Source: a virus. From it: a DNA stretch of 45,227 bases. The position numbers and the translations under genes were made by a program. Below the pieces are notes generated by a model. The model searched no databases. It worked only from the letters and a program-made list of their open reading frames with translations, and had not been told where the DNA came from. The stretch lies in UHGV virus genome UHGV-0391923; one strand, written 5' to 3'. Shown here piece by piece: positions 3,161 to 43,530 of this stretch. Each line of letters begins with the position of its first letter. The stretch's first letter is position 1.

Positions 3161-4618
3161 TTATATCTTAACATTGTTCTTGCATAAAATACAATGGTAC
3201 GAGCGTCCAGACGGTATTCTTTTTTCTGAATTAATCCGAAAAGTTGTGTCGCCATGCACCTTACACAATCCTATAAACTTCCTAGCAGCGCTATCAGCAT
3301 CAAGTGCGCTTCGCATTCTATTTCTATTTTCCTCGGCATTTCTGGCATTTGCGCTTTTATCTTTCTTGGCTTGCTGTCTTAAGTATTTCTCTTTCACGCA
3401 AAGTTTGCACCGATGAATGGTTCGGCCATTCGGGTTCTCAATTCTAAATTCAGTTTCACCATGTTTTTTGCATATCCCATCGAATGTATTTCTTGATTCT
3501 GCCAATGCTTGTGTTCTAGCTGCTACATTCTTCTGGTCGATTGTTACAGGATCAGGAGTTTTTAGGCAGGCCATGCAGCGGTACTTTCCTTTCGACACGA
3601 TTCGATAAGGTGTATCACCATGAGTTAAGCAATATCCTGTAAAGAATCCTGTCTTAGATTGCTTCATTAGCTCTCGGTTGTAATGTTCCCTAACCGTCAT
3701 GTTTGGATAGATCATTTTCTTTGGCTTGCACATCGGTCTGCATCTTGGGCATATTGCGCGCCCATTTGCATGAAGTTTTAGCGTGGTTTTTCCATGCGTC
3801 TTGCAAATCCCAAAAAACTCTCTTAGTCCGCTTTCTAATGCCAATTTCTTGGCTTCTGCGGCTTCTTTTCGATCAGTCTGCTCCTGTGTTGGTGGCTTTT
3901 TCTTCTGAAGGCGCTCCACAGGTTTACCAAATTCAAAAACCGCAGCATGCAGCTTTAGCTCGGCAAAATCCTCAACACGGAATTTTCTGCGACCACGGGT
4001 GCTAAAAAAGTCACGATCAATCTTTGCAATCTGTGAAAATTTCAATATATCGCCCTTAAAGCACTTGCTTTTAAATTCAGCAATGAACGCTTCAATTTCC
4101 TCAAGTGGAACGTAGTGAATTACTGGCTTCGGCTTTGAGCTTCTTTTGTATGGCTTTCTTTCGGGTTTTCCAGTGGTGTATTTAAAACTCGCAATCGCTG
4201 AATACAGGCCCTCCATGTTTTTTGTATCTGGCACAGACACGCCTGATTCCCATCTTGACAGTGTTTTTCTATCAACACCGACAATGCTTGCAAGTCTGCC
4301 AAAATCACCAAGTCCAGCCTTTTCTCGAAAATCTTTGATTGCTGCTCTAATTTCTCCAATGGCTTGATTATCAGCAAGTGCCTTTTGCGCTTTGTAATTC
4401 GCTTTTGCTTCGGCTTTCTTGGCTGCATTTTCAGCACGTACCATGCGATTGACTTCACGGGCGCGCTGTTTCGATTCCTGTTGCGTCCTTTCCGATGGTT
4501 GCGGCGGTGTATATCCGGTTGCGGTAGATGCACCACGCGGAATAACGGTCGGCTTGTTGTTTTTAAGCCATTCTTCGAGTCCATCAATGGTTTGGTCTTT
4601 AATTGGATTGAAAAGCAT
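3161..4618 (-). CDS. Basic DNA-binding protein: XRE-type HTH plus four tandem CHC2-like zinc ribbons resembling the DnaG primase zinc-binding domain
   Basis: HTH GRLASIVGVDRKTLSRWESGVSVP. Four repeats of F-x-G-[ILY]-C-x2-HG-x-T-x-[FYL]-[RK]-[IL]..G[RK]..C-x2-C (GICKTHGKTTLKL..CPRC; GYCLTHGDTPYRI..CMAC; GICKKHGETEFRI..CKLC; GLCKVHGDTTFRI..CILC). Lys/Arg-rich. Confidence 0.7.
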   Translation of the reverse strand: MLFNPIKDQTIDGLEEWLKNNKPTVIPRGASTATGYTPPQPSERTQQESKQRAREVNRMVRAENAAKKAEAKANYKAQKALADNQAIGEIRAAIKDFREKAGLGDFGRLASIVGVDRKTLSRWESGVSVPDTKNMEGLYSAIASFKYTTGKPERKPYKRSSKPKPVIHYVPLEEIEAFIAEFKSKCFKGDILKFSQIAKIDRDFFSTRGRRKFRVEDFAELKLHAAVFEFGKPVERLQKKKPPTQEQTDRKEAAEAKKLALESGLREFFGICKTHGKTTLKLHANGRAICPRCRPMCKPKKMIYPNMTVREHYNRELMKQSKTGFFTGYCLTHGDTPYRIVSKGKYRCMACLKTPDPVTIDQKNVAARTQALAESRNTFDGICKKHGETEFRIENPNGRTIHRCKLCVKEKYLRQQAKKDKSANARNAEENRNRMRSALDADSAARKFIGLCKVHGDTTFRINSEKRIPSGRSYHCILCKNNVKI

Positions 4619-4688: not shown

Positions 4689-4952
4689 TTAAAGTGTCGA
4701 ACTGTGCGATTTTAGAGCCAATAAGAAGCCTTCAAGGTTTTCTTCATGGGATTGTGCGTAAACATCATCATCAGTGGTGTAGCTAGTAGAAATCTTGTAG
4801 TAAGTAAATCCACCATCTTTGCCAAATACGTTAAGTCCCAATGTTAGGCCATGCGTATCATAAGAAACCATTGCGCTTGCATCATCATTTTCAGCGTTAA
4901 ACTCAAAAGCAGCGTTTACTGCTTGTAGTAGTAATTCTTTAGATAATTTCAT
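4689..4952 (-). CDS. Small acidic protein (87 aa, about 13 Asp/Glu versus 5 Lys); first gene behind the AT-rich promoter region
   Basis: ORF with RBS AGGAGAAATAACATG. Confidence 0.55.
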   Translation of the reverse strand: MKLSKELLLQAVNAAFEFNAENDDASAMVSYDTHGLTLGLNVFGKDGGFTYYKISTSYTTDDDVYAQSHEENLEGFLLALKSHSSTL

Positions 4953-5083
4953 GTTATTTCTCCTAAGTCATGTCAACATATTATTATAATTATAGTAGTT
5001 ATACTAATTCTTTTAATTGATATACATCACGTAATTATATAAGAATTACTTATAATAAAGAGTATATTTTATATAATCTTTCT

Positions 5084-5160
5084 TACCAGTTGTATAGGGT
5101 TGTATATAAGAAGAATAGGCTTAGTGGTGACTTTTAGTATATATAGAATTATTCTCATTT
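5084..5160 (+). repeat. 77-bp element identical to the reverse complement of 39583..39659. Contains TTGTATA x2, a TTAGTG-N17-TAGAAT promoter-like core and the palindrome AGAATTATTCT.
   Basis: Direct base-by-base comparison, 77/77 identical, with weaker similarity beyond both ends. Confidence 0.9.
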
Positions 5161-5200
5161 AGATAGAATATACAAATACCGCTCCCAAATTAACCGCCAA

Positions 5201-5217
5201 TTTGATATAATTCTATT
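5201..5217 (+). promoter_or_regulatory. Extended -10 promoter TTTGATATAATTCTATT (TGnTATAAT); the same 17-mer recurs at 13231..13247
   Basis: Exact 17-mer repeat, each about 80-100 nt upstream of a plus-strand gene. Confidence 0.5.
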
Positions 5218-5298
5218 GTGGCTAGGCTGATCCCCGAAAGCTGTTTAACCTGAACAGTTGCCACAAATCTAAATCAGGTTTTCAATGAGGATTGAAGA

Positions 5299-5862
5299 AT
5301 GAAATTAGTTTATGGTTTTGGTGTAAATGATGTCGTCAACTCTAGCAAAACAAGAGAGTACGGAATATGGAAAGCAATCATAGAAAGATGCTACTCGGGA
5401 AAGCCCCTAATTAAGCACTCGACATACATGGATTGTATTATTGATGAGGAATTTAAATTATTTTCCGGCTTTAACGACTGGTTTAAAAAGCAGATCGGAA
5501 GCAACCAAAAGGGATGGGAAATAGACAAAGATGTTTTAATTAATGGAAATAAAGAATACCACCCTGATAAATGTGTATTTTTGCCAAGAGAGATAAATGG
5601 ATTTTTAAAAAAAAGAAAAAAGTGCAGAGGAGAGTTTCCTATTGGAGTTACCCTAAATAAACACGGATCATTCGTAGCTATGATGAGCCTTGGTAGCGAA
5701 AGGGAATACTTGGGTAGTTTCCAGAATCCAAATGAAGCATTTGAAGCCTACAAGATAGCCAAAGAAGCCCACATTAAGGTTCTGGCGAACAAATACAAAG
5801 ATATGATAGACCCCCGAGCCTATGAAGCCCTGATGCGCTATGAAGTTAAAATTACAGATTAA
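5299..5862 (+). CDS. Free-standing homing-endonuclease-like protein with a C-terminal AP2 DNA-binding domain
   Basis: N-terminal YGFGVNDVV...EYGIWKAIIERCY motif typical of phage HNH/AP2 endonucleases; AP2-like GVTLNKHGSFVAMMSLGSEREYLGSFQNPNEAFEAYKIAKEAH. Confidence 0.7.
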   Translation: MKLVYGFGVNDVVNSSKTREYGIWKAIIERCYSGKPLIKHSTYMDCIIDEEFKLFSGFNDWFKKQIGSNQKGWEIDKDVLINGNKEYHPDKCVFLPREINGFLKKRKKCRGEFPIGVTLNKHGSFVAMMSLGSEREYLGSFQNPNEAFEAYKIAKEAHIKVLANKYKDMIDPRAYEALMRYEVKITD

Positions 5863-9515: not shown

Positions 9516-10331
9516 GTGATGTTTAATATGAATAAAACATATCTAATATGCGAAAAACACAGCCCCTCTATTGTTAAAATAGGGGTTTCGTATGATGTTG
9601 AAAAAAGGCTATCAACACTAAAAAGCCAAACAAGAAAGGATTTGGAAATCGTATCTTTTATTGATATGGATATCGAGAAGTACGCACATCAGAAATTCGC
9701 AAGTCTATCAATTGGTGGTGAGTGGTTTATGGATGATGGCTCAATAAGAGCTTTCTTTGAAAACACCAGCGACATAAAAAGCCTATCAACTCATGACATG
9801 AATAACGATGGCAAAGTGAATGATAAAGAAATGTCGCCCATCATTGTTGTGGATGGCATGATTTCTATCACTAAAATTATCTCAGAAATAAACAAGCCAA
9901 GAAAGAGAAAGTTTAACTTATCTCAGTGGATAAAAACAAAAAGGATTCAAGCAAAAATAAAGAAACTTGAATCCTTGACTGGTAAAAATCAAATTGTCAT
10001 CGGCAGGGGTAGAAACTCATCAACGCTAATTAGTAAGGAGTTATTTTTATCTTTGGCAAGCGACATTGGCCTAAGTTTTGATATTAACGAGCTAAATTTA
10101 AGTGTAGAAGATGCACTGAAAACAGATTCGGCAACCTGCGAAATGATTGGAAGATTGTACCTAAACACATCAAATAAAACGGACTGGAATAACGAGATAG
10201 ATGCCATTTTAGGAATCTTGAAATCCGTACCTAGTGAGAAAGTAGAGTCTGTTTGCTCAAGCATATCTCAACTATCCACTATTATGGACAATGACGAAGC
10301 AGTAAGACTGGCCTTAGAAAAGAACAAGTAA
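9516..10331 (+). CDS. T5orf172-domain (GIY-YIG superfamily) protein, possible homing endonuclease
   Basis: TYLICEKHSPSIVKIGVSYDVEKRLSTLKSQ...LEIV...KYAHQKFASLSIGGEWF matches the T5orf172 pattern (KIG.T..l..Rl..L......GEWF). The track start is GTG; the ATG at 9519 is an alternative. Confidence 0.65.
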   Translation: MMFNMNKTYLICEKHSPSIVKIGVSYDVEKRLSTLKSQTRKDLEIVSFIDMDIEKYAHQKFASLSIGGEWFMDDGSIRAFFENTSDIKSLSTHDMNNDGKVNDKEMSPIIVVDGMISITKIISEINKPRKRKFNLSQWIKTKRIQAKIKKLESLTGKNQIVIGRGRNSSTLISKELFLSLASDIGLSFDINELNLSVEDALKTDSATCEMIGRLYLNTSNKTDWNNEIDAILGILKSVPSEKVESVCSSISQLSTIMDNDEAVRLALEKNK

Positions 10332-13220: not shown

Positions 13221-13241
13221 TTCCTAGTTGTTTGATATAAT
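13221..13241 (+). promoter_or_regulatory. Extended -10 promoter (17-mer TTTGATATAATTCTATT at 13231..13247), copy 2
   Basis: Identical 17-mer to 5201..5217. Confidence 0.5.
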
Positions 13242-13244
13242 TCT

Positions 13245-13272
13245 ATTATAAAGATAAAATCTATCATTGCAA
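13245..13272 (-). promoter_or_regulatory. Divergent minus-strand promoter TTGCAA-N16-TATAAT for the 13016..13213 gene
   Basis: Near-consensus hexamers, 16-nt spacer, back-to-back with the plus promoter. Confidence 0.5.
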
Positions 13273-13320
13273 TAACATTCTAACAATGTTAATATTCTGT
13301 CATTGTTTAGGAGAATGAAA

Positions 13321-13705: not shown

Positions 13706-14380
13706 ATGTCAAACCTACCAGCACAACAAAATAACTCAGCACTGACTGTCATTGAAAATATGGTTTCAAGCGGTAACTTCGATGTGAATGTCGCGCGTGA
13801 ACTTATCGAAATGCAAAAAGACATTATGAAGCAGCAAGCGATTATCAATTTTAATCACGACTTCTCTTTGATGTCTAAAAAGATTCCAGTGATTGCGCAC
13901 ACTAAAAAGTCATACAGCACGACATACGCACCATTAGAGGATATTGTTAAAATCGTGCAGCCGATTCTATCCGAGCATGGTTTTAGTGTGTCATTCAGCA
14001 CTCAGCAGAACAGCATTGAGTCAGTAAAGATTGTCTGCACACTGATGCACAAAGACGGCCATACAGCCACCACCGAGCTTGAATTACCAACCGAATCCGT
14101 CACCAAAGGCATGAACAAGATGCAGGCTATCGGTGCTGCAATCACCTACGGCAAACGCTATACGCTATGCGGCATTTTAAACATCACCACCACAGGAGAT
14201 GACTGTAACAATGGTTTTGCGGTGAATGCCAAGACAAGTAAGCCGCGTTTAACAGATGAGCAATTTAGCAAGGCTCTAGCCAAGATTCAGAACAATGAAT
14301 ACACGCTAGACAAACTACTAAATACCTATGAATTGAGCAATGAACAAATTATAGAGGTGGCGAAAAATGCTACAGTTTAG
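13706..14380 (+). CDS. erf: ERF-family single-strand annealing protein
   Basis: MNKMQAIGAAITYGKRYTLCGILNI matches the ERF signature (GsAiTYARRYaL). Confidence 0.75.
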   Translation: MSNLPAQQNNSALTVIENMVSSGNFDVNVARELIEMQKDIMKQQAIINFNHDFSLMSKKIPVIAHTKKSYSTTYAPLEDIVKIVQPILSEHGFSVSFSTQQNSIESVKIVCTLMHKDGHTATTELELPTESVTKGMNKMQAIGAAITYGKRYTLCGILNITTTGDDCNNGFAVNAKTSKPRLTDEQFSKALAKIQNNEYTLDKLLNTYELSNEQIIEVAKNATV

Positions 14381-16347: not shown

Positions 16348-16604
16348 ATTATTTAAATGAAGCTGTACTTATTATTGCAACTTATATTCTTATTAAGGCA
16401 GTTATTAGCTTTAAACGAGCATTAAAGATCAAGAATATTGCTATAGCAAGAAAAGAGCTTGATCGTGACTATGAGAAGAAGCTAAAAGCCCTCAATAGTA
16501 ACAATGCTAAAACGCTGTTATCAATGGCGCGTCAGATTGGGTTTGCTGTATCAGGCGTGCTGATTATCGCATCATCCTACGCGCTTTACTTTATCTTGAA
16601 ATAG
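16344..16604 (+). CDS. Two-TM membrane protein (86 aa)
   Basis: Hydrophobic N- and C-terminal helices; last gene before a bidirectional terminator. Confidence 0.5.
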   Translation: MNYLNEAVLIIATYILIKAVISFKRALKIKNIAIARKELDRDYEKKLKALNSNNAKTLLSMARQIGFAVSGVLIIASSYALYFILK

Positions 16605-16608
16605 AACA

Positions 16609-16630
16609 AGGGCCACACGGCCCTTTCTAA
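16609..16630. terminator. Bidirectional terminator AGGGCCacacGGCCCT between the early operon and the lysis cassette
   Basis: GC hairpin plus T-run. Confidence 0.55.
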
Positions 16631-16693
16631 TTAACGCACTGCACACAAATAGTAACGCTTATTTTGCTATTAATACTGTGAGCAGTACATCCA

Positions 16694-17302
16694 CTAAAGA
16701 CTACGCAAAGCACGTTCAAAAATAACAGCTTCATTAGCAATCTTTTGTGCCTTATCCATGCCATTGATAATCCGACGTGCATTTACATAATCCTTTTTAC
16801 TGTCTGAAATATAGTCTGATAGTTTTCGACCTGTAAACCACCCTTCTTTCATGCCGACAATCATGATTTTAACAGCATGTTCTTTTTTCATAACTAAATC
16901 GGGATTCTGGGTATAATCATAACCCAGTTTGTTTGATGCCTTGTCGTAATTAGCCCACCAAGTAAGCTGAACATAACCACGCCCATAGTATAGATGAGGG
17001 TAGTCATCAAATAGGTATGCTACTTTTTTCAATCCATCAATAAAAGAATACAGTTTGCCTAAACTGTTCTTAAACCATGTTCCATATGGTCTACCTTTTC
17101 CTTTCCCATACTCCTCAATAGGCAGCATGGTTGTAGCAGTTTCATGCCATGTTGTCGCAAGCATGTAGGCTGCTTGTGGATATGAAATGGATTTATCTTT
17201 ATCGAACTCAGATACCAGAAAGTTAATCTGATCAACTTGGCTTTGGTTTAATCGACCTAGATTATTACGCAGTATATTAAATCCACCTGCTGTCATCTTC
17301 AT
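16694..17302 (-). CDS. Endolysin, glycoside hydrolase family 19-like
   Basis: YGRGYVQLTWWANY motif characteristic of GH19 catalytic domains. Confidence 0.75.
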   Translation of the reverse strand: MKMTAGGFNILRNNLGRLNQSQVDQINFLVSEFDKDKSISYPQAAYMLATTWHETATTMLPIEEYGKGKGRPYGTWFKNSLGKLYSFIDGLKKVAYLFDDYPHLYYGRGYVQLTWWANYDKASNKLGYDYTQNPDLVMKKEHAVKIMIVGMKEGWFTGRKLSDYISDSKKDYVNARRIINGMDKAQKIANEAVIFERALRSL

Positions 17303-29076: not shown

Positions 29077-29616
29077 ATGATTGTTAATTGCAGAAATTGT
29101 TTGTGTGAGTTTGATAAAAAACCCGCAGAGATCAAAAGAACTAAAAATCACTATTGTAGTAAAAAATGCAAAGGTGACTTTTTGTCAAATGAAAATAAAC
29201 TAAGGTTCTTTAGCAAAGCAATCAAGAATGGTGATTGTTTGGAGTGGTCTGGATCGCTAAATAAACATGGATACGGTGTTGCTAGGCACAATAAGTCAGT
29301 AATGTTGGCACATAGGGTTTCATATTTAATTTCGAACGGGGAAATACCTGACGGGATGTGTATTTGCCATAAATGTGACAATCCAAAATGCATAAATCCT
29401 GATCATTTGTTTGCTGGCAACCACTCTACCAACATGGAGGATATGAGAATCAAAAGTAGAAAGTGGTCGAGACTGACTTTTGATGATGTTGCTGAGATAA
29501 GAAACAGTAGCGAAAGCTCTTCACTTCTAGCAACTAAATATAATGTGTCTGCACGAACAATAAGGTACGCTAGAGACGTAACCCACTGGATGCCACTACC
29601 CGAACCTCCGAAATAA
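29077..29616 (+). CDS. HNH homing endonuclease (HNH_3-type)
   Basis: GDCLEWSGSLNKHGYGVARHNKSVMLAHRVSYLISNGEIPDGMCICHKCDNPKCINPDHLFAGNHSTNMEDM. Confidence 0.85.
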   Translation: MIVNCRNCLCEFDKKPAEIKRTKNHYCSKKCKGDFLSNENKLRFFSKAIKNGDCLEWSGSLNKHGYGVARHNKSVMLAHRVSYLISNGEIPDGMCICHKCDNPKCINPDHLFAGNHSTNMEDMRIKSRKWSRLTFDDVAEIRNSSESSSLLATKYNVSARTIRYARDVTHWMPLPEPPK

Positions 29617-33509: not shown

Positions 33510-33555
33510 CTCCTAAATTGTCAATATATTATTATCCTACACTTATTTCAGGCAA

Positions 33556-39199: not shown

Positions 39200-39259
39200 T
39201 TCATTCTCCTATTCAATGATTAAATACTAATCGTATAATTCTAACATGTCAATATATTA

Positions 39260-39547
39260 TTATAAACTATTTAAGTATTTCACGATGTTCTCATGCTGCA
39301 CCACATGAATATCACCTTTTCTTTTAAATCTTGCGATTGATGTCAGGTGGTCAAGATACTTTTCACTGGATTTCCACTGCCCCATTTTTTCAGCAATGAC
39401 AGCACTAATTTCGGGGCGGGTTAATCCGGTTCTTTTCTGCGTTTTTTTCAGGTGACGTTTAATGTCGAATGCGTAACTTTTCAGGTAGTCGATTTCGGCT
39501 TCATTTTGAGTGATTTTGCTTAATGTGTTTTCACTGAGTTTTAGCAT
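39260..39547 (-). CDS. HTH-containing small regulator-like protein (95 aa from MLKLSENTL)
   Basis: HTH-like RTGLTRPEISAVIAEKMG; AGGAGAAAAT RBS; promoter in the 77-bp repeat just upstream. Confidence 0.5.
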   Translation of the reverse strand: MLKLSENTLSKITQNEAEIDYLKSYAFDIKRHLKKTQKRTGLTRPEISAVIAEKMGQWKSSEKYLDHLTSIARFKRKGDIHVVQHENIVKYLNSL

Positions 39548-39582
39548 GGTATTTTCTCCTATATTTTCTCTATTATACACAT

Positions 39583-39659
39583 AAATGAGAATAATTCTAT
39601 ATATACTAAAAGTCACCACTAAGCCTATTCTTCTTATATACAACCCTATACAACTGGTA
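39583..39659 (-). repeat. Second copy of the 77-bp element (reverse complement of 5084..5160), in the same orientation relative to its downstream gene
   Basis: 77/77 identity. Confidence 0.9.
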
Positions 39660-39765
39660 TAAAGAATATATAGAAAAACACGTAAAACATAAGAACATAT
39701 TACTATTATATAACGTATAGAGCTTTTATAAGATTATGTCTAAAATGATCAAATTTTGAGCAGTA

Positions 39766-39788
39766 AAAAGCCCCCTTTCGGAGGCCAA
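39766..39788 (-). terminator. Terminator GGCCTCCgaaaGGGGGC plus TTTTT after the portal gene
   Basis: Hairpin plus T-run on the minus strand. Confidence 0.5.
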
Positions 39789-39790
39789 TT

Positions 39791-41188
39791 TTAGACAAAA
39801 CTCTGCGTCTGAGATTCCTCAATTCTGATACGTTCTTCATCGAAATCCAGCTCTGGAATTTTACCTGTGGCCATGATCTCATGAAGCGTTTTTGCACTCA
39901 TTCGACCCGCAACAACTTCCGACTGGTAGAACTTCAAATCTTCAAGACTGATACGACCTTTGGCAAAGTCCTGCTTGATTGTGAATTTAGCATCGTTGCC
40001 TGAGCCGTAGAACGCTGCACACCATTTAAGGCAATACTCCATAGCTTCATTCAGGTTCGACACGCACAGCGACAATACAGAGTGATTTGTAGCGTCATCG
40101 GAATTGACCTGTGTTGCGGTCTTATTCACAGCACTGGAATCAAGCAATTTCGCGCCCAAGTCCTGCATATACTGCTTTTTGTCGTCCATTGCTTCTTTTG
40201 CCAATGTGTCAATTGGTGCAGTTGCATAAGTGAATTTTCCACTTCCACGCAATACAAGTGGCGTTGCACTGCCTAGCATCACTCCACCTTTCCCTAGTCG
40301 TTCAGCGTCATCATGATCCAATTCACTAAAAACAGGCTGCACCTGGTTGGTGAAGAACACGGATTGTTCGTACTCAGCACTGTTTCGGTAGTGTGCCAGG
40401 TTGATCTCGGCCACTGGTTCAAGCGGAATCTCGTCAATTGACAGGTCATTCACCTGCGCCCCAATTGGAAAAAACAGGATTTCGTTAAGGCGGTTGCCAT
40501 TGATGGTTGGGTAAATCAAATCCCCTGCAAGCATCTCGCCAGTGCGGTCAGAATAAACCTGAATGGAATATTCATTGTTTTCGTCCAATCGCAATACGCG
40601 GTAATTCGTTACAACCTGCTCTTGGAACTCGTTTAATGGATCGGTTTCCGTGGTGAACTCGCGTAAAACTACAAGTGAAGTCCGAAATTCGTTACCGATC
40701 TTCTTAACTCGCCAGTTAATGATATTAAAAGCATCGTATAACGCCATGATTGGACGTATACCGCGTGTTTGAATGTCGGCAGGTGTTACCCCCCCATCCG
40801 TCACAGGATAGTCCACCAAGAAGCCACCACGCCCGAATTTAAGCAATAAGCCTAAAGCCTTTTGATTGAGCTGATAAATCGAAGTGCCTAGACCGTCTGC
40901 ATTATCCTTGAGGAAATCCATGCCATCGGGGTCAAATGTCGGGTCTTCTGCAAAAGCCAAGCCGATATGCGTCTGTAAAGTGTTCTTTGCAATCGGGTAG
41001 AACACGGCACGTTTTAAATACGCCTGATAGCGATTCCAGTTTGTTTCGTAGTCGCTACAAAAGTTAATCATAGGCAGATACAGCGTGTTTGCTTTCTTGA
41101 CCGCTCTTGAGCCACTACATACGTCCTGCATCATCCGCCATCTGTCGGCATTTTCTAAATATTCTAAATGCTGAAAATCTACTGACAT
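39791..41188 (-). CDS. Portal protein
   Basis: 465 aa, acidic, between terminase and head morphogenesis. Confidence 0.75.
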   Translation of the reverse strand: MSVDFQHLEYLENADRWRMMQDVCSGSRAVKKANTLYLPMINFCSDYETNWNRYQAYLKRAVFYPIAKNTLQTHIGLAFAEDPTFDPDGMDFLKDNADGLGTSIYQLNQKALGLLLKFGRGGFLVDYPVTDGGVTPADIQTRGIRPIMALYDAFNIINWRVKKIGNEFRTSLVVLREFTTETDPLNEFQEQVVTNYRVLRLDENNEYSIQVYSDRTGEMLAGDLIYPTINGNRLNEILFFPIGAQVNDLSIDEIPLEPVAEINLAHYRNSAEYEQSVFFTNQVQPVFSELDHDDAERLGKGGVMLGSATPLVLRGSGKFTYATAPIDTLAKEAMDDKKQYMQDLGAKLLDSSAVNKTATQVNSDDATNHSVLSLCVSNLNEAMEYCLKWCAAFYGSGNDAKFTIKQDFAKGRISLEDLKFYQSEVVAGRMSAKTLHEIMATGKIPELDFDEERIRIEESQTQSFV

Positions 41189-43056: not shown

Positions 43057-43081
43057 TTGGTTTATCTCCTTAACTCATGTC

Positions 43082-43110
43082 ATTATGTTATTATAAATAC
43101 TGATTGTCAA
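43082..43110 (-). promoter_or_regulatory. Sigma70-like promoter TTGACA-N17-CATAAT for the accessory operon 43056->41238
   Basis: Consensus -35 and good -10 just downstream of a bidirectional terminator. Confidence 0.55.
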
Positions 43111-43453: not shown

Positions 43454-43530
43454 TGGAGCGCCTAGTAGGAATCGAACCCACCTATGTACGGAGTAGAATT
43501 CCGCTGCCTAATCCAATCGGCCATAGACGC
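43454..43530 (-). tRNA. tRNA-Arg (anticodon TCT), 77 nt including an encoded CCA
   Basis: Reverse complement GCGTCTATGGCCGATTGGATTAGGCAGCGGAATTCTACTCCGTACATAGGTGGGTTCGATTCCTACTAGGCGCTCCA folds into a 7-bp acceptor stem, D-loop with GG, anticodon stem GCGGA/TCCGT with loop AT-TCT-AC, and T-arm GTGGG-TTCGATT-CCTAC. Confidence 0.8.

Follow-up and report, generated by a model that had tools for sequence, protein, structure and literature searches.

The viral genome UHGV-0391923, a DNA of 45,227 nucleotides (nt) that was analysed over its whole length and is called the window below, carries two inverted segments that are complementary at 78 of 78 positions and have 34,420 nt between them, and this raises the question of why a phage should hold two identical copies of one sequence so far apart. 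A repeat search of the window placed the arms at 5084-5161 (plus strand) and 39582-39659; the runner-up inverted repeat is only 37 nt long at 78%, and the pair is therefore far beyond chance. The original prediction had described a perfect inverted repeat of 77 bp with similarity decaying past each end. The repeat is confirmed, with one base more, and so is the decay: at both sites, weaker similarity continues beyond the core for about 55 nt on the upstream side and for a few bases on the downstream side, and an nhmmer profile made from all copies of the element and run on the window aligns about 155 nt at each of the two sites, A and B, and finds no third copy there. The element is non-coding and probably a DNA-level control region, and its two arms are old paralogous copies. 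Our overall explanation, which we favour by a modest degree, is that of a shared promoter/operator, with p95, a small protein encoded beside copy B, as its most likely ligand, and with a perfect identity made by gene conversion. The parts of the element are as follows.

5084-5161, plus strand: copy A, the perfect 78-nt core, pointing toward the gene for an HNH endonuclease (the cargo of site A)
39582-39659, minus strand: copy B, the perfect 78-nt core, pointing toward the 95-residue p95 gene
5027-5187, plus strand: unit A, the full homologous unit of about 155 nt (nhmmer E = 5e-32), with upstream TATAAT-like boxes and A-type flanks
39556-39713, minus strand: unit B, the full homologous unit of about 155 nt (nhmmer E = 4e-30), with B-type flanks
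5144-5157, plus strand: invariant block TAGAATTATTCTCA in copy A, a candidate -10 TAGAAT plus a palindrome that is the candidate operator
39586-39599, minus strand: invariant block TAGAATTATTCTCA in copy B, as in copy A

A 16-mer of the invariant block occurs in the window only at sites A and B. On the circular map, the two copies lie 10.65 kb apart and face away from the stretch that has the gene of an 87-residue protein at one end and the portal gene at the other. Site A is a divergent intergenic region of 346 nt, with the 87-residue protein gene on its left and the HNH gene on its right, and site B lies between the intrinsic terminator of the portal gene and p95. The genes to which the copies point had been predicted correctly at 5299 (plus) and 39547 (minus), but in the protein of the first, described there as AP2-type, no AP2 Pfam domain was detected; it matches PHROG 953, ‘HNH endonuclease’.

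39791-41188, minus strand: portal gene (PF13264 and phrog_145), the upstream neighbour of site B
39769-39786, minus strand: intrinsic terminator of the portal gene, directly preceding unit B and kept in all B loci
39260-39547, minus strand: p95, gene of a basic 95-residue predicted helix-turn-helix (HTH) regulator, directly downstream of copy B
4689-4952, minus strand: gene of the conserved acidic 87-residue protein (isoelectric point 4.45), divergent from site A
5299-5862, plus strand: HNH endonuclease gene (phrog_953, E = 1e-69), the cargo at site A

Both p95 and the 87-residue protein have about 100 homologues each, nearly all of them in metagenome assemblies and several on contigs of 42-46 kb, and these homologues have no Pfam domain on record and no name. 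The loci of relatives, given L numbers here, were the regions around these homologues, together with contigs from IMG/VR and JGI/ENA that hold the motif. The original prediction had made conservation of the element a touchstone, and we found it in the same two places in every relative that covers them. At site B, it follows the portal terminator and precedes p95 (L033, L097, L098, L100, L103, L109, L110, L113, L118 and L120); at site A, it stands beside the 87-residue protein gene and points away from it (L100, L103, L104, L105, L107, L108, L109, L110, L115 and L119). In a more distant set (L057, L112, L114, L116 and L117), p95 is only about 50% identical and does not adjoin the portal gene, being divergent from the terminase operon in L057, and the element is still directly upstream of p95. 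Because it is kept at both sites and follows p95 into the distant set, we regard the element as an ancestral two-site feature of this phage group with its tightest link to p95, and we are close to certain that it is a conserved two-site cis-element.

What lies downstream of site A, by contrast with the element, differs in almost every relative. The cargo is an HNH gene in the window and L107, a Dam-type methyltransferase in L103, a C5 methyltransferase in L100 and L104 (annotated) and in L115 (judged only by a near-identical leader), an unknown 143-residue protein in L105, an unknown 95-residue protein unrelated to p95 in L108, a Rha-like regulator with a 73-codon open reading frame (ORF) in L109, and a PAPS-reductase-like protein of 275 residues with a 63-codon ORF in L110. 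The element thus marks a variable slot, holding methyltransferases, HNH genes and unknowns, that may be co-regulated with p95. We also observed a second variable slot directly after p95, which contains an HNH gene in L033 (600-1160), L097 (10382-10942) and L118 (1184-1726) and an unknown 207-residue protein in L098 (10350-10973), and which is empty in the window, L100, L103, L109 and L110. In L109, a gene between terminase and portal (16504-16926) matches the Pfam family AcrIF11_ADP_ribosyl, which suggests that these phages gather counter-defence genes in small slots.

Among the five genomes with both copies, the perfect identity of the two cores is peculiar to the window. In the four other genomes with both copies (L100, L103, L109 and L110), the A and B cores match at 54-59 of 78 positions (approximately 70-77%), and the mean A-versus-B identity across genomes is 71%. 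The flanks of the window copies keep this distinction, those of unit A matching the A copies of L100, L103, L104, L107 and L108 and those of unit B matching the B copies of L097, L098 and L109. At the diagnostic columns, defined as those that separate A from B copies in the relatives, copy A of the window is A-type and copy B is B-type throughout the region outside 5084-5161; inside the core, both are B-type at five of the seven columns. The core is also closest to B copies, namely those of L098 and L109 (87%) and L097 (85%), and the closest available relatives, which come from different samples, have ordinary, different cores (L119 at site A, with an 87-residue protein 93% identical to that of the window, and L120 at site B, with a p95 98% identical). 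A B-type core within A-type flanks points to a recent conversion tract of at least 78 nt in the direction B to A, and on these sequence comparisons gene conversion very probably accounts for the perfect identity. Such exchange between A and B recurs, as shown by the A copy of L115, the right half of which is B-type, and by the patchwork of a few interchangeable variants in the middle block of the element. The catalyst would probably be the host RecA or the phage's own recombinase.

13706-14380, plus strand: ERF-family recombinase (PF04404, E = 2e-20)

It is unlikely that the 78-bp identity is instead an artefact of assembly, because the flanks are syntenic and site-specific at both copies and because copies that are elsewhere only about 70% identical would not be merged by an assembler. 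The 78/78 identity would not be required for the function of the element but would be a record of recent conversion; a striking perfect repeat can thus be a by-product, a fresh conversion tract laid over an older functional duplication.

The function itself is better read from what has stayed constant among the copies. The conserved blocks are ATACCA; GTATATAAG.AGAATA; TGG(T/C)GA.TTT; and T.TAGAATTATTCTCA.T.A. Of 24 copies, 23 share the 14-mer TAGAATTATTCTCA exactly and one, the A copy of L107, has a single change, while p95 drops to 50% identity over the same range; conservation stops a few bases past this block, and the orientation of the element to the downstream gene is fixed. Block conservation, end point and orientation together fit a promoter with TAGAAT (5144-5149; five of six positions of TATAAT) as its -10, a start near CTCA and an operator, the palindrome AGAATTATTCT (5145-5155), over -11 to -1. 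This palindrome is invariant and overlaps the candidate -10/+1, and it consists of only 5 + 1 + 5 bp in a promoter that is itself putative. Modest support for a promoter comes from the over-representation of TAGAATTAT, with five copies against 0.57 expected; one extra copy supplies the -10 of TGT-TAGAAT, an extended -10 site just past the p95 gene.

Several observations speak clearly against a simple sigma-70 promoter. A simple sigma-70 scan called no promoter within the repeat at either site, the best pairings reaching about 7/12; TTAGTG, which the original prediction had taken as the -35, has two of six matches to TTGACA and varies among the copies (TAACTG, TAAATG, TTTCTG, GAAATG and others), so that there is no canonical -35; and the absence of TG at -15/-14 means that there is no extended -10. 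Caveats on a control of the cargo by p95 are that cargo genes often bring their own promoter, that the geometry relative to the following -10-like box is not the same at A and B, and that in L105 a terminator-like hairpin separates the element from the cargo. This hairpin (AGCACCC-ATTA-GGATGCT plus a T-run; approximately 9700-9760, minus strand), about 40 nt downstream of the site A element and before the gene of the 143-residue protein, might set the end of a short transcript or shield the cargo. As a promoter, the element would probably rely on a factor or on the upstream A/T-rich blocks. A sigma-54-like reading of TGGTGA-N5, noticed by eye, was dropped for want of a GC at -12, and the two TTGTATA direct repeats were rejected as iterons, being missing from most relatives; as they are specific to the B-type core of the window, they cannot be essential. 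All the sub-features named in the original prediction (TTGTATA twice, TTAGTG-N17-TAGAAT and the palindrome) are present, but only TAGAAT and the palindrome are invariant (23/24). Of its three proposals, that of a duplicated promoter-operator cassette served by an HTH protein fits best, as the element is conserved at both sites, points at a gene, follows p95 and has in p95 a modelled HTH protein; it is the proposed -35 that does not survive. We consider a function in the control of transcription probable on this pattern of conservation; promoter activity, the start site, binding by p95 and the sign of the regulation are all features that we infer.

A small predicted HTH protein encoded beside the element is what an HTH autoregulator module requires, and p95 is such a protein: it is a basic protein of 95 residues, with a model of the lambda-repressor-like HTH type. 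The POU-specific domain, HigA, C-proteins and Aca1/7/10 have been named in connection with p95 as a candidate regulator. A structure search of BFVD gave two close viral matches (TM-score 0.6, root-mean-square deviation 1.5-1.8 Å) and, lower in the list, a ‘putative transcriptional regulator’ of AP22 with a non-significant E-value; a Foldseek search against the PDB was likewise non-significant. The p95 sequence has no match in Pfam, NCBIfam or PHROG and gives only noise in a profile search of the PDB (E > 0.3), and tblastn against 50,697 phage records found no homologue, so that it fits no described regulator family by sequence. Six residues in the predicted helices after the turn (Y64, D66, T69, S70, R73 and F74) do not vary within the family, just as the DNA block is invariant. 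The HTH model, the invariant helix residues and the invariant block together suggest that p95 may bind this block at both sites; the assignment of p95 as the ligand is tentative, with the chances slightly against it. A 5 + 1 + 5 palindrome is tighter than the usual operators of HTH dimers, which counts against it. If p95 does bind, it would autoregulate through copy B, and copy A would put the distant cargo slot under the same control; repression is favoured as its action, because the palindrome overlaps the candidate -10/+1. The 87-residue neighbour was considered as a DNA-binding partner and is unlikely to be one, being acidic (isoelectric point 4.45) and, from its sequence by eye, of mixed helix and strand with no HTH motif.

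This arrangement resembles the OL/PL and OR/PR regions of lambda, in that two homologous, inverted control regions point outward and are presumably read by one small HTH regulator encoded beside one of them. It differs in that the sites are 10.65 kb rather than 2.4 kb apart, with a structural and packaging operon rather than the immunity region between them, in having one short palindrome rather than three 17-bp operators, in that no lysogeny genes were seen here, and in that binding is here putative. Small HTH proteins such as Cro, C-proteins and Aca control their own promoters (PMC9410906, PMC8633003), and in logic the arrangement resembles Aca-controlled acr promoters and the C-protein/C-box control of restriction-modification systems. 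It differs from them in that p95 belongs to no Aca or C-protein sequence family, that regulator and cargo are in separate units 10 kb apart with the promoter sequence in common instead of one operon, and that the cargo includes HNH and Rha-like genes, with any anti-defence activity putative. The element would thus be a familiar kind of phage gene regulation, and what is newly defined is the p95 family of small uncharacterised HTH proteins together with its conserved two-site cis-element, in a phage group seen only in metagenomes. As the type of mechanism is well known, its general significance is modest, but if p95 does bind, the pair would be of use as a simple regulatory handle to those who engineer or annotate these phages.

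A different role, compatible with a promoter, is that of a recombination linker or ‘mobile regulatory cassette’, a stretch of homology at the edge of a hyperplastic slot through which co-infecting phages swap cargo. Variable cargo flanked by the constant element and the primase terminator is what such a role would produce, and so are the mosaic cores described above for L115 and the middle block. There is also precedent in T4-type phages, whose PeSL cassettes recombine and lie next to variable genes (PMC2839356, PMC4122927), and here, too, a repeated and putatively promoter-bearing sequence borders a variable accessory slot, with copies that recombine and cores that are mosaic or converted. 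Unlike PeSL cassettes, however, the element has two copies per genome rather than dozens, and these are inverted, which allows neither mini-circles nor deletion of cargo; a strong canonical sigma-70 promoter is missing from it; and a built-in stem-loop terminator is absent from the 155-nt unit, since no stable hairpin was found within it and the portal terminator lies outside the unit and at site B only. A linker alone would also leave the 14 invariant bases unexplained. We consider this role possible but unlikely.

The element might instead be a promoter/operator with another ligand, be it a host factor, RNA polymerase alone or an Xre-type protein encoded two genes from site A.

3161-4618: gene of a 485-residue protein with an Xre-type HTH

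The position and the HTH of this protein speak for it, and a short palindrome atypical of an HTH dimer speaks for a ligand other than p95; in the distant L057 group, however, the element travels with p95, and no homologue of the 485-residue or the 87-residue protein was found on that 10.6-kb contig. We judge it unlikely that the ligand is one of these. With p95 kept as the ligand, one may go further and picture p95 and the two operator-bearing promoters as a split, trans-acting circuit of the Aca or C-protein kind, with its regulator embedded among the head genes, which would time or limit a hyperplastic slot for DNA-modification and possible anti-defence genes 10 kb away. We regard this extension as distinctly doubtful; if it were true, the element and the pseudoknotted leader of the cargo (see below) could be used to search uncultured Acinetobacter-type phages for new counter-defence genes.

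Inversion is the role that two inverted repeats bring to mind, as in Mu G/Gin, P1 C/Cin and Hin, where they likewise flank a multi-kb segment. Here the 10.65-kb segment from the 87-residue protein gene to the portal gene, or the complementary 34.4 kb, would flip to give genome isomers; the 78 bp of perfect inverted homology and the ERF recombinase speak for it, and each gene would retain its promoter once flipped. But neither the scan of window ORFs (small ORFs not all being covered) nor the precomputed Pfam lists of the relatives showed an invertase, a resolvase or an integrase, the repeats are diverged in the relatives (A/B core identity only about 70-77%) and they are much longer than gix or hix. 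In addition, all five two-copy genomes (the window, L100, L103, L109 and L110) and the single-site contigs have one arrangement, with no alternative orientation and no chimeras of A and B flanks. A dedicated inversion system is therefore very unlikely, although homologous inversion across the 78 bp may occur now and then. The proposal in the original prediction that the repeat is a substrate for recombination is accordingly true in one sense, that of a product of A/B gene conversion, and not in that of an invertible segment.

The original prediction had also offered a footprint of homing-endonuclease mobility, in which the p95-HNH arrangement of L033 and L097 would have been the source of the repeat, brought to site A along with the HNH gene. 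Element, p95 and HNH gene are indeed contiguous in L033, L097 and L118, and copy A of the window shares AAATACC with the ribosome-binding region of p95. The HNH unit, however, begins downstream of the repeat: the boundary of its cassette, TTGATATAAT, is at 5202, 41 nt past the repeat, and the cassette likewise starts at TTGATATAAT in L033, L097 and Acinetobacter phage AbP2, all three without the element immediately upstream of the HNH gene and the last with a coding gene before the cassette. In L033, L097 and L118, the HNH cassette begins at TGTGATATAAT, just past the p95 stop codon. Furthermore, L107 has the same HNH gene at site A behind a diverged, A-type element, and at least eight relatives have the element at site A before methyltransferases or other non-HNH cargo. 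On these comparisons, a homing footprint is largely refuted, and we hold it to be highly improbable.

A structured RNA, a small RNA gene or a replication or packaging site is scarcely credible: high conservation, the terminator of L105, which is some 40 nt downstream and might bound a short transcript, and the nearness of site A to the primase/helicase gene are outweighed by an RNAalifold consensus of 12 sequences at -0.65 kcal/mol with no compensatory pairs, a window sequence that folds worse than its shuffles (z = +1.38), the lack of any Rfam match in the repeat, the lack of conserved iterons (TTGTATA twice being specific to the window) and the presence of two inverted copies, which would not be expected of a packaging site.

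The cargo of site A has control sequences of its own, which lie outside the repeat.

5202-5298, plus strand: promoter and leader of the cargo cassette, with the extended -10 TTGATATAAT (5202-5211) and a pseudoknotted, int-alpA-like leader

This portable unit of promoter and leader is also seen in L033 (505-599), L097 (10289-10381), L100 (893-977, minus strand), L108, L110 and AbP2 (L111, 3499-3597), and it precedes unrelated genes, for an HNH protein, a C5 methyltransferase, a PAPS-reductase-like protein and an unknown 95-residue protein. The leader has the helices P1 (GTGGC/GCCAC) and P2 (CTGTT/AACAG) and a hairpin loop, AACCTGA, that pairs with TCAGGTT just 5' of the Shine-Dalgarno sequence, and all three helices are kept by compensatory changes across the relatives. 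Its best Rfam match is int-alpA (RF02996), which 5215-5279 matches at 28.7 bits (E = 1e-4), below the gathering threshold of 35.8, and its architecture agrees with that of int-alpA (P1, CUAG, CGAAA, hairpin and downstream pairing). The leader may act in the control of translation and move along with the cargo. The 17-mer TTGATATAATTCTATTG is present in identical form at 5202-5218 and at 13231-13247, which places the same extended -10 promoter-like sequence before the HNH cassette and before the gene at 13303. At its end, the HNH gene has a bidirectional terminator in common with the convergent primase-helicase gene.

The whole window has the look of a complete phage genome of about 45 kb, circularly permuted and cut within the small-terminase region: no listed ORF spans its ends, and in relatives TerS is present there. 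The portal shares 54% identity with its counterpart in Acinetobacter phage TRS1 and about 55% with the portals of many IMG/VR contigs. The phages that carry the element are an uncultured group with genomes of about 45 kb, and Acinetobacter phages have the portals closest to theirs. When 25 kb of the window were compared by megablast with the 50,697 cultured phage records, there was no match, blastn of the repeat against cultured phages gave only chance matches, and in IMG/VR an exact 22-mer search gave none and a 16-mer search gave 61, of which two contigs only were real relatives. A degenerate 33-nt pattern had no match in GTDB genomes, and hence no link to a prophage or host was obtained.

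With the 87-residue protein gene begins a long operon of co-oriented genes, which continues through terminase and portal as far as copy B. A tRNA gene (43457-43530, minus strand; Rfam tRNA, 45.5 bits) separates the large terminase from the genes that lead up to the portal, and L097 also has a tRNA at the corresponding place. Two further candidate genes of homing-endonuclease type, for an HNH_3 protein (29077-29616, plus strand) and for a protein with T5orf172/MUG113 (GIY-YIG-like) and KilA-N domains (9516-10331, plus strand), bring the number in the genome, with the HNH gene at 5299, to at least three. Finally, the motif TTATAATAATATRTTGACATG recurs upstream of minus-strand genes (4969-4989, 33513-33535, 39245-39265 and 43076-43096, all on the minus strand) and is probably the standard promoter or leader motif of the phage; the insertion point of the HNH gene in relatives falls precisely between the stop codon of p95 and that motif.
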